A stretch of 64,000 bases of DNA, from NCBI RefSeq assembly GCF_056712565.1, contig NZ_CM160072.1. One strand, given 5' to 3'. Position numbers: made by a program. Of this stretch, positions 1 through 3,000 are shown piece after piece (within the stretch, counting starts at the first letter, position 1; each line of letters begins with the position of its first letter).

Positions 1-3000
1 TGCTACGCCCGGATGTCTGGTTGATGATTGGTCACTGTGGCGGATTACGTGAAAGCCAGGCCATTGGAGATTATGTCCTTGCACACGCTTATTTACGCGA
101 TGACCACGTTCTTGATGCGGTTCTGCCGCCCGATATTCCTATTCCGAGCATTGCTGAAGTGCAACGTGCGCTTTATGACGCTACCAAGTTAGTCAGCGGC
201 AGGCCTGGTGAGGAAGTCAAACAGCGGCTGCGTACAGGTACTGTGGTAACCACAGATGACAGGAACTGGGAGTTACGTTACTCAGCTTCTGCACTTCGTT
301 TTAACTTAAGCCGGGCCGTAGCAATTGATATGGAAAGTGCAACCATTGCCGCGCAAGGATATCGTTTCCGCGTGCCATACGGGACACTACTGTGTGTTTC
401 AGATAAACCGTTACATGGTGAGATTAAGCTTCCCGGCCAGGCTAACCGTTTTTATGAAGGCGCTATTTCCGAACACCTGCAAATTGGCATTCGGGCGATC
501 GATTTGCTGCGCGCAGAAGGCGACCGACTGCATTCACGTAAATTACGAACCTTTAATGAGCCGCCGTTCCGATAATAAGTTATGAACCTTCTTATCAGAA
601 ATAGATGTGAAGGATTAAGTAAGACATCTGGCAAATAGCCTGCAATAAACGCGGGCTGTTTGCTTCCTTGGGCAGATGCGAGTTTTATTATCGTCTTAAT
701 GATTTCCACATATTAAAAGCAAGTATGCTTTCAAAACACAATTATAAAAAATCCCGCCAACAACATTAGTTTTTATAAAATTAAATATAAGATTATGGCT
801 TTAGAATATTTTTATTTCTAATAGACGAGATTTTTCCTGTTATGATATAATATGCTGAATTAACACATGTTAACGATTTACCAGTAATGTAAATAAATTT
901 TCGAGGAGATCATTCCAGTGGGACGTAAATGGGCCAATATTGTTGCTAAAAAAACGGCTAAAGACGGTGCAACGTCTAAAATTTATGCAAAATTCGGTGT
1001 AGAAATCTATGCTGCTGCCAAACAAGGTGAACCCGATCCAGAATTAAACACATCTTTAAAATTCGTTATTGAACGTGCAAAGCAGGCACAAGTTCCAAAG
1101 CACGTTATTGATAAAGCAATTGATAAAGCCAAAGGCGGTGGAGATGAAACGTTCGTACAGGGACGTTATGAAGGCTTTGGTCCTAATGGCTCAATGATTA
1201 TTGCTGAGACATTGACTTCAAATGTTAACCGTACGATTGCTAACGTTCGCACAATTTTCAATAAAAAAGGCGGCAATATCGGAGCGGCAGGTTCTGTCAG
1301 CTATATGTTTGACAATACGGGTGTGATTGTATTTAAAGGAACAGACCCTGACCATATTTTTGAAATTTTGCTTGAAGCTGAAGTTGATGTTCGTGATGTA
1401 ACTGAAGAAGAAGGTAATATTGTTATTTATACTGAACCTACTGACCTTCATAAAGGAATCGCGGCGCTAAAAGCAGCTGGAATCACTGAGTTCTCAACAA
1501 CAGAATTAGAAATGATTGCTCAATCTGAAGTTGAGCTTTCCCCAGAAGATTTAGAAATCTTTGAAGGGCTTGTTGATGCCCTTGAAGATGACGACGATGT
1601 ACAAAAAGTTTATCATAACGTCGCAAATCTCTAATTATATGTTAAAGAAATCTGTCTTTATGGCAGATTTCTTTAATCTCATATAATCCTTATAAAAATA
1701 TAATGTTTAACTCGTCATATTGCTTATAAAAAATCCCCGTTCCCAGAGAAATAATATTTATTAAAATGGCAGGTCTTCTTTTTCTGATTACCGAAGACAA
1801 AGTGGCAATTACGTATAGTTTCCCGATAAAGACGCGACAGCTACATCCCGCATAAGGCATTTTTCTCTTTATCTTTGTACGGTACTTCATGGAACAGAAT
1901 TTTTGACCTTGTGAATCGTGATGTCTGTTGGGGAGGGGCAATTTGCTCACTGAAGCGTGAGACTCGATTAAGCGCACGAAACACAGAAATCAAAAACCCG
2001 ACCACTTTTTTACAAAGTGACCGGGTAAAAATAATTTTTATTTTTTAACTGTCCTGAGACTCATAGAGATGTCTCAAAACTAAAATTTGGCTCCTCTGAC
2101 TGGACTCGAACCAGTGACATACGGATTAACAGTCCGCCGTTCTACCGACTGAACTACAGAGGAATCGTGTGAACGGGGCGCATATTAATGGCAGTGCATG
2201 GTGATGTCAAAGGGTGAAATGCATTTTTTTGTTTGTTTGCTGACAATTTCAACAAAGTGGTGAGCTTTCAATCTTATTGGGTAATGAACCATCGTGGTGC
2301 ATACCCCCCTTTTATAGGGCAGGTGAATGCGACTGCTGATAAAAAGGGCCAATGACGAATCTATCATAATCTCTTATTTGACAGTTGGTTAGCTTGCGCA
2401 TCAACGCTAAAATAGAACTGGCAAGCATCTTGCATTCTGGTTGTAAGTAATGGCGGCACTTGGGCCGATTCTTAAAAACCGGAGGCAACATGAACTTCAG
2501 ACGCCTGAAATACTTCGTAAAAATTGTAGATATTGGTAGCCTGACCCAGGCTGCTGAAGTATTGCATATTGCACAACCAGCGCTCAGCCAGCAGGTTGCC
2601 ACACTGGAAGGTGAGTTAAATCAACAGCTTTTGATTCGCACAAAACGGGGCGTTACGCCAACAGGCGCCGGAAAAATTCTCTATACCCATGCACGGGCCA
2701 TTTTACGTCAGTGTGAGCAGGCCCAACTGGCGGTGCATAACGTTGGTCAGTCATTATCGGGGCAAGTCTCGATTGGCTTTGCGCCAGGAACCGCTGCGTC
2801 ATCCATCACCATGCCCTTATTACAGGCGGTTCGCGCTGAATTCCCGGAGGTCGTTATCTATCTTCATGAAAATAGTGGTGCAGTGCTTAACGAAAAACTG
2901 ATAAATCACCAACTCGATATGGCGGTGATTTATGAGCATTCCCCTGTGGCTGGGGTATCCAGTCAGGCTTTGCTGAGAGAAGATCTTTTCCTGGTAGGAA

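Follow-up and report, generated by a model that had tools for sequence, protein, structure and literature searches.

Sequence architecture of the nac promoter region of Escherichia coli Nissle 1917: a very probable NtrC enhancer about 150 bp upstream of a sigma-54 promoter

The gene nac is separated from a tRNA-Asn gene on the opposite strand by a spacer of 326 bp, and the question raised by this locus is which sequence elements in that spacer control nac and from which start codon the protein is made. The window analysed here, a 64-kb stretch of contig NZ_CM160072.1 (RefSeq assembly GCF_056712565.1), comes from E. coli Nissle 1917; positions 1640-2500 are 100% identical to the chromosome of that strain. 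In RefSeq, the local order is amn, yeeN, tRNA-Asn (-), nac, cbl, tRNA-Asn (-), yeeO, tRNA-Asn (+), integrase, and clbS. Both an NtrC-like dyad and a sigma-54 promoter core lie inside the spacer, between the divergent tRNA-Asn gene and the nac ATG at 2490. An Rfam scan of positions 1600-3600 returned nothing above threshold except the tRNA. The region very probably represents the promoter of E. coli nac, in which an NtrC enhancer is placed approx. 150 bp 5' of a sigma-54 promoter. The features on which this reading draws are as follows.

2088-2163, minus strand: tRNA-Asn gene (asnV position), divergent from nac and bounding its control region (ARAGORN; Rfam, 72.6 bits)
4497-4572, minus strand, and 6321-6396, plus strand: the other two of the three tRNA-Asn genes (ARAGORN)
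2285-2301, no strand assigned: dyad TGAACCA-TCG-TGGTGCA, read as a high-affinity NtrC (NRI/GlnG) site, centred at -152 from the predicted +1 (consensus match, identity with K-12, orthologs)
2305-2321, no strand assigned: conserved second element with its centre near -132, candidate low-affinity NtrC site (ortholog conservation)
2363-2377, no strand assigned: Nac-like box ATC-N9-TAT with its centre at -75, between enhancer and promoter (ATA-N9-TAT matched at 5 of 6 positions)
2418-2434, plus strand: sigma-54 (RpoN) promoter core CTGGCAAGCATCTTGCA, with the -24 GG at 2420-2421 and the -12 GC at 2432-2433 (identity with a K-12 ChIP-seq site, weight matrix, orthologs)
2445, plus strand: predicted transcription start with a 45-nt leader (19 bp 3' of the motif centre, by the rule of Bonocora 2015)
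2481-2485, plus strand: Shine-Dalgarno sequence GGAGG of nac, four bases 5' of ATG 2490 (read from the sequence)
2490-3407, plus strand: nac coding sequence, a LysR-type regulator of 305 amino acids (RefSeq annotation of Nissle 1917, identical in sequence; ortholog alignments begin at residue 1)

The promoter core is the best documented of these elements. Positions 2419-2434 read TGGCAAGCATCTTGCA, that is, TGGCA-AGCATC-TTGCA, with the GG-N10-GC geometry of sigma-54 promoters and flanks that conform to TGGCAC-N5-TTGCW. The pattern TGGCA-N6-TTGCA occurs once on the two strands of the 64-kb window, for an expectation of approx. 0.43 by chance. From the other 41 intergenic ChIP-seq motifs of Bonocora 2015 (PMC4591121), the nac site being left out, a sigma-54 weight matrix was made; with this matrix 2418-2434 reached 17.4 bits, which is rank 2 among all positions of the window on both strands and exceeds the best score in every one of 20 shuffled windows (these maxima average 14.4 and reach 15.6 at most); among true sigma-54 sites, in the same leave-one-out scheme, it ranks 15 of 42. 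Moreover, CTGGCAAGCATCTTGCA is listed in Table 1 of that study as the K-12 sigma-54 ChIP-seq site OS19, with nac as the downstream gene, an occupancy score of 24, the EcoCyc status 'C' (experimentally confirmed), and 45 bp between the predicted start and that of the gene. The same list of sites includes nac, glnAp2, and glnK, and nac served there as the positive control for induction by nitrogen limitation, with reference to Muse & Bender 1998 (PMC4591121). The rule used in that work, which counts 19 bp downstream from the motif centre to +1 and gives the distance of 45 to the K-12 nac start, would place the nac transcription start of Nissle at 2445 (PMC4591121). The core is intergenic, in the sense orientation, and its predicted start lies 45 nt from ATG 2490, within the approx. 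20-100 nt at which a promoter of this kind is looked for.

Occupancy by sigma-54 need not mean transcription, and many of the 135 sites at which binding of sigma-54 was mapped in vivo may never yield any (Bonocora 2015, PMC4591121). It might therefore be argued that sigma-54 binds 2418-2434 unproductively and that nac depends on NtrC indirectly. For this site such a reading is extremely improbable: apart from its intergenic, sense placement at 45 nt from the start of nac, the site carries a flag of experimental confirmation and the RNA is raised under nitrogen limitation (PMC4591121), and the nac promoter, nacp, has been shown by Levy et al. (bioRxiv 10.1101/086108) to drive NtrC-dependent reporter expression in synthetic enhancers, outside its native context. 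A productive sigma-54 promoter at 2418-2434 is the reading followed below.

Upstream of this core, positions 2285-2301 read TGAACCATCGTGGTGCA and agree with the 17-bp dyad TGCACCA-N3-TGGTGCA at 13 of 14 specified positions; they also fit the published NtrC ChIP-exo motif GCaCcaaaAtgGtGC. With one mismatch at most, the consensus is matched nowhere else in the window, where approx. 0.03 such matches are expected by chance (0.42 if two mismatches are allowed). The dyad is centred at -152, within the range of approx. 100-160 bp 5' of a sigma-54 promoter at which an enhancer is looked for. An NtrC ChIP-seq peak has been assigned to nac-cbl by Brown et al. (PMC4066584), and Shimada et al. (PMC8743547) obtained in-vitro genomic SELEX peaks in the nac/asnV spacer with the RpoN holoenzyme, with NtrC, and with the two combined; these peaks, obtained with K-12 and having a resolution of approx. 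100-200 bp, cannot locate NtrC as narrowly as 2285-2301. For the identical K-12 sequence, the literature thus documents sigma-54 occupancy of the 17-mer, NtrC occupancy of the spacer, and nitrogen-limited induction, these data being from K-12 rather than from Nissle.

The comparison with K-12 MG1655 extends over the whole control region. The two strains are identical in the dyad, in the Nac-like box and the sigma-54 17-mer, in the leader with its putative hairpin region, and in the Shine-Dalgarno sequence and start codon, and both have the divergent tRNA-Asn gene. They differ by 14 substitutions in 332 bp, 13 of which fall within 2307-2436, between functional elements.

Conservation was followed further in a set of 80 nac loci, one genome per species, from other species of Enterobacteriaceae (Escherichia, Citrobacter, Enterobacter, Klebsiella, Raoultella, Kosakonia, Kluyvera, Leclercia, and others) with a protein identity of 79-98%. 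TGGCA-N6-TTGCA was found in 80/80 loci, 62-75 bp 5' of the ATG, with invariant TGGCA and TTGCA bases and a variable spacer. An NtrC-like dyad was likewise present in 80/80, scoring 10-13 of 14, and its GCAC/GTGC core columns are 95-100% conserved in the alignment. In 70 of the 80 loci the dyad centre lies at -150 to -153 from the predicted +1, including K. pneumoniae at -152. The exceptions are eight loci at -130/-131 (Kluyvera and relatives) and two Pseudocitrobacter loci at -140 and -141, and in aligned representatives they coincide with deletions of approx. 22 bp and approx. 12 bp, respectively, between enhancer and promoter. In Escherichia, the left half-site deviates from the consensus, reading TGAACCA, or TGTTCCA in two lineages; elsewhere it is TGCACC(A). 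In strain AR13438, enhancer and promoter are set apart by an IS3 element.

These results bear on the alternative that the two motifs arose by coincidence and that nac has its promoter elsewhere. Each loose pattern, taken alone, is indeed expected approx. 0.4 times per 64-kb window. Such coincidence is nevertheless next to impossible to maintain, given that the dyad at no more than one mismatch is expected only 0.03 times, that the matrix score lies above every shuffle maximum, that both motifs recur with the same spacing in 80/80 orthologs, and that the exact 17-mer is occupied by sigma-54 in vivo in K-12 (PMC4591121). We estimate the probability that both motifs would arise by chance in the right order and strand within approx. 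200 bp upstream of one named gene at roughly 1e-8. The original prediction, which had read TGAACCA-TCG-TGGTGCA as an NtrC site and TGGCA-N6-TTGCA as a sigma-54 element approx. 55 bp from the ATG, is borne out on these points: each motif is found once only in the window, the dyad at up to one mismatch; the end of the sigma-54 motif, at 2434, is 56 bp from ATG 2490; both motifs are identical in the K-12 nac promoter; and conservation upstream of orthologous nac genes, on which that prediction had been staked beforehand, was found for both.

The spacer also serves the divergent tRNA-Asn gene, the sigma-70 promoter of which shares it with the nac control elements. In 72 of the 80 loci, nac has a tRNA-Asn gene upstream; in 70 loci this gene is divergent and placed approx. 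307-336 bp from the ATG, so that the length of the spacer is near-constant across genera. In Nissle, the block nac-cbl-tRNA-yeeO is inverted relative to K-12, and the neighbour beyond the tRNA gene is yeeN in Nissle and ldtA in K-12. The pairing of tRNA-Asn and nac survives this inversion. Judged by its sequence, the tRNA-Asn promoter would appear to be under growth-rate and stringent control. One further NtrC-like site in this part of the spacer, at 2248-2264 (TTCAACAAAGTGGTGAG, 10/14), was rejected because it overlaps a conserved palindrome, TTGCTGA-N5-TCAGCAA at 2237-2255. This palindrome is approx. 71 bp from the start of the tRNA-Asn gene and is therefore ascribed to the tRNA promoter; a part of it, CAGCAAAC, recurs 5' of each of the window's three tRNA-Asn genes.

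In view of this shared spacer, the dyad at 2285-2301 might belong to the divergent tRNA-Asn promoter, or bind a regulator other than NtrC, instead of serving nac; where the spacer is near-constant, a fixed distance to nac is also a fixed distance to the tRNA gene. Four observations make this very improbable. The conserved columns of the dyad are those of the NtrC core, GCAC...GTGC. The upstream regions of the other two tRNA-Asn genes share the -35, the -10, and the CAGCAAAC block, but lack the dyad. The dyad is approx. 118 bp upstream of the tRNA start, beyond the usual positions of sigma-70 activators. Finally, the published NtrC peaks fall in this spacer (PMC4066584, PMC8743547). The three alternatives, namely coincidental motifs, a dyad acting for the tRNA promoter or for a different regulator, and sigma-54 binding without transcription, carry only a small probability even when taken jointly, and the dyad is treated below as the NtrC enhancer of nac.

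Activation of a sigma-54 -24/-12 core by an upstream NtrC enhancer is shared by nac with glnAp2 and glnK of E. coli. At glnAp2 there are two high-affinity NtrC sites, whereas at nac a single strong dyad is visible. For the nac enhancer of K. aerogenes, Feng, Goss, Bender and Ninfa are said to have described in 1995 one high-affinity and one adjacent low-affinity NtrC site. A candidate for the weak partner can be seen in the alignment. In 66 of the 80 orthologs, the best NtrC-like 17-mer lies, measured between centres, exactly 20 bp 3' of the strong dyad and has (A)TGGGGCA at its end, a right half that resembles the NtrC half-site (TGGGGCA vs TGGTGCA); its GGGCA columns are 90-100% conserved. 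In other genera the element takes the form TACCCC-N4-GGGGCA, and E. coli retains the right half alone, TAGGGCA at 2315-2321. Agreement with the consensus is weak, at 7-10/14 in orthologs and 7/14 in the window, compared with 6-7 for a random best-of-13; in E. coli the element is a half-site, no better than random by this score. Because of the weak score, NtrC is a ligand that we infer for it, and 2305-2321 would be the obvious candidate for the weak NtrC site of the nac enhancer. The nac promoter of K. pneumoniae has the same layout, with the sigma-54 core TGGCAAGCAAATTGCA, the dyad at -152, the second element TACCCC-TAAT-GGGGCA, and a Nac-like box ATCACTATCCCTTAT at -75. The two species differ in the left half-site of the dyad (TGAACCA in E. 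coli, TGCACCG in K. pneumoniae) and in the left half of the second element, which E. coli lacks. According to published statements, nac and glnK are not activated until NtrC has accumulated, and a single strong dyad with a degenerate partner fits this behaviour.

In Klebsiella, Nac is reported to repress nac from between the enhancer and the promoter. Such a position is occupied in the window by ATCATAATCTCTTAT at 2363-2377, which agrees with ATA-N9-TAT at five of six positions, in a spacer that alone holds four matches as loose as this one; the published Nac ChIP-exo motif is ATAagnaaaanttAT. The position is kept: AT(C/T)-N9-TAT is found at -74 to -76 in 58 of the 80 orthologs, among them K. 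pneumoniae, and the 20-bp block ATCATAATCTCTTATTTGAC, which holds the box, is invariant across seven Escherichia lineages. Given a position as expected, 2363-2377 is probably the site of Nac autorepression. The box is absent in 22/80 orthologs, and autorepression at this spot is therefore not universal. The Klebsiella nac promoter has been reviewed as one that is activated by a two-component system and repressed by Nac itself, which acts against the activator (PMC11495319). Between 2300 and 2420 on the plus strand, inspection by eye gave no match to the IHF consensus WATCAA-N4-TTR.

As for the start codon, the nac protein is rightly begun at ATG 2490. In every one of the 80 orthologs the gene opens with ATGAA and has a Shine-Dalgarno-like motif no more than 14 nt from the ATG, 38 of the orthologs have no alternative in-frame start within 45 nt upstream, and the RefSeq and K-12 annotations agree on this codon. 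The upstream TTG at 2460 is not conserved, its three bases being common to approx. 40%, 0%, and 90% of orthologs, and the distance from promoter to ATG varies across orthologs by non-multiples of three. The original prediction had also preferred 2490 to the TTG, on the grounds that the promoter supports it. The choice of start stands, but the argument for it is weak: since the predicted +1 at 2445 is upstream of both codons, the promoter alone does not favour one over the other. In the leader, single-sequence folds suggested a hairpin and anti-Shine-Dalgarno pairing in many genera, and the proposed register was 78.6% paired, compared with 38-57% for slid registers; RNAalifold gave no consensus structure for a conserved nac leader hairpin, and the pair counts were no better than those of shuffles (194 of 500).

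The layout is that of standard bacterial enhancer-dependent transcription, and the following course of events is very probable. Sigma-54 RNA polymerase occupies 2418-2434 as a closed complex that is unable to start transcription alone. Upon nitrogen limitation, phosphorylated NtrC would bind to the dyad at 2285-2301 and probably also to its weaker neighbour at 2305-2321, for which the role of second element is suggested by the alignment, and would then assemble into an active oligomer. This oligomer would reach the polymerase, approx. 150 bp away, by DNA looping and use ATP to open the promoter. Transcription would proceed from near 2445 and translation from ATG 2490. Nac would then probably bind to the ATC-N9-TAT box at 2363-2377, as its placement between enhancer and promoter suggests, and in this way damp its own synthesis.

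As a discovery, these results carry little weight. The nac promoter is a textbook target of NtrC and sigma-54, and its 17-mer is contained in published sigma-54 ChIP-seq tables; what has been validated is the earlier reading of the motifs and of the gene start. The analysis does provide a base-level map of the nac control region of Nissle 1917, comprising the strong dyad, the second element, the Nac-like box, the promoter core, and the predicted +1, and such a map could help in the engineering of nitrogen-responsive expression in this probiotic strain. It is unlikely, though conceivable, that the back-to-back pairing of the tRNA-Asn promoter with the nac enhancer is functional instead of reflecting inherited gene order. 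If it were functional, the shut-down of the strong tRNA promoter in nitrogen starvation might alter local supercoiling or protein occupancy and so help to set the NtrC threshold of nac, and, together with the weakened enhancer of Escherichia (C-to-A in the left half-site, degenerate second site), the timing of nac firing might be tuned.

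Within the stretch, the block running from 2088 to 6396 (tRNA-Asn, nac, cbl, tRNA-Asn, yeeO, tRNA-Asn) has the opposite orientation to that in K-12 MG1655, whose gene order is yeeN, asnW, yeeO, asnU, cbl, nac, asnV, ldtA. The end-points of the inversion are tRNA-Asn genes in opposite orientation, and the nac control region has been carried along intact. Of 5426 complete E. coli genomes, no more than 264 have the yeeN-tRNA-nac junction of the Nissle type. The third tRNA-Asn gene is followed by a tyrosine recombinase gene and clbS (6558 onward); therefore, most of the remaining window corresponds to the colibactin (pks) island, which has a tRNA-Asn gene as its insertion site.

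Among the orthologous nac loci of Enterobacteriaceae, two groups have a shortened interval between the NtrC dyad (the enhancer) and the sigma-54 promoter, and in one E. coli strain the spacer is split by an insertion (dyad positions refer to the dyad centre relative to the predicted nac +1):

Dyad at -130/-131: loci L042, L047-L049, L058, L061 and L065, Kluyvera spp. and relatives.
Dyad at -140/-141: loci L054 (representative) and L056, Pseudocitrobacter, second shortened group.
IS3-family element: 1727-3160 of locus L085, E. coli AR13438 (NZ_CP097170.1), splitting the nac spacer.

In particular, the aligned representative of the first group, L048, has lost approx. 22 bp between enhancer and promoter together with the Nac-like box, which places its dyad at -130; in L054 a loss of approx. 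12 bp disrupts the Nac-like box, leaving it degenerate, and places the dyad at -140. Both shifts amount to roughly whole helical turns. The Nac-like box is also missing in the Citrobacter freundii group. In AR13438, the IS3-family element separates the part of the spacer that holds the enhancer and the Nac box from the sigma-54 promoter, so that the dyad lies more than 1.3 kb from the nac promoter; an integrase gene is also present beyond tRNA-Asn.

Two further features flank the enhancer-promoter interval:

2182-2255, minus strand: tRNA-Asn sigma-70 promoter and upstream palindrome.
2445-2489, with the corresponding leaders of L003-L082: nac leader, predicted folds.

The tRNA-Asn promoter consists of a -35 element TTGACA, a 17-bp spacer and a -10 element TAATAT, followed by GC-rich GCGCCCC. 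Upstream of it, approx. 71 bp from the tRNA start, lies the near-invariant palindrome TTGCTGA-N5-TCAGCAA (2237-2255), part of which, CAGCAAAC, is common to the upstream regions of all three tRNA-Asn genes in the window. Its position and its pattern, G-N3-A-W5-T-N3-C, suggest a Fis-type upstream activating site. For the nac leader, folding predicts a short GC hairpin in many loci (e.g., GCCAG-N8-CTGGC; CGGC-N6-GCCG at 2453-2466 in E. coli) and, outside Escherichia, a UUCCU stretch able to pair with the Shine-Dalgarno sequence. Because RNAalifold gave no consensus structure for these leaders and covariation did not rise above that of shuffles, both the hairpin and the pairing stay candidates.

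The highest-scoring sigma-54 weight-matrix match of the whole window, ATGGCGTGATTTTTGCT (50665-50681, minus strand, 18.2 bits), outscores the nac site. A 3209-aa open reading frame of the colibactin island (47851-57480, minus strand) contains this match in sense orientation; it may belong to the intragenic sigma-54 sites that are frequent in E. coli.
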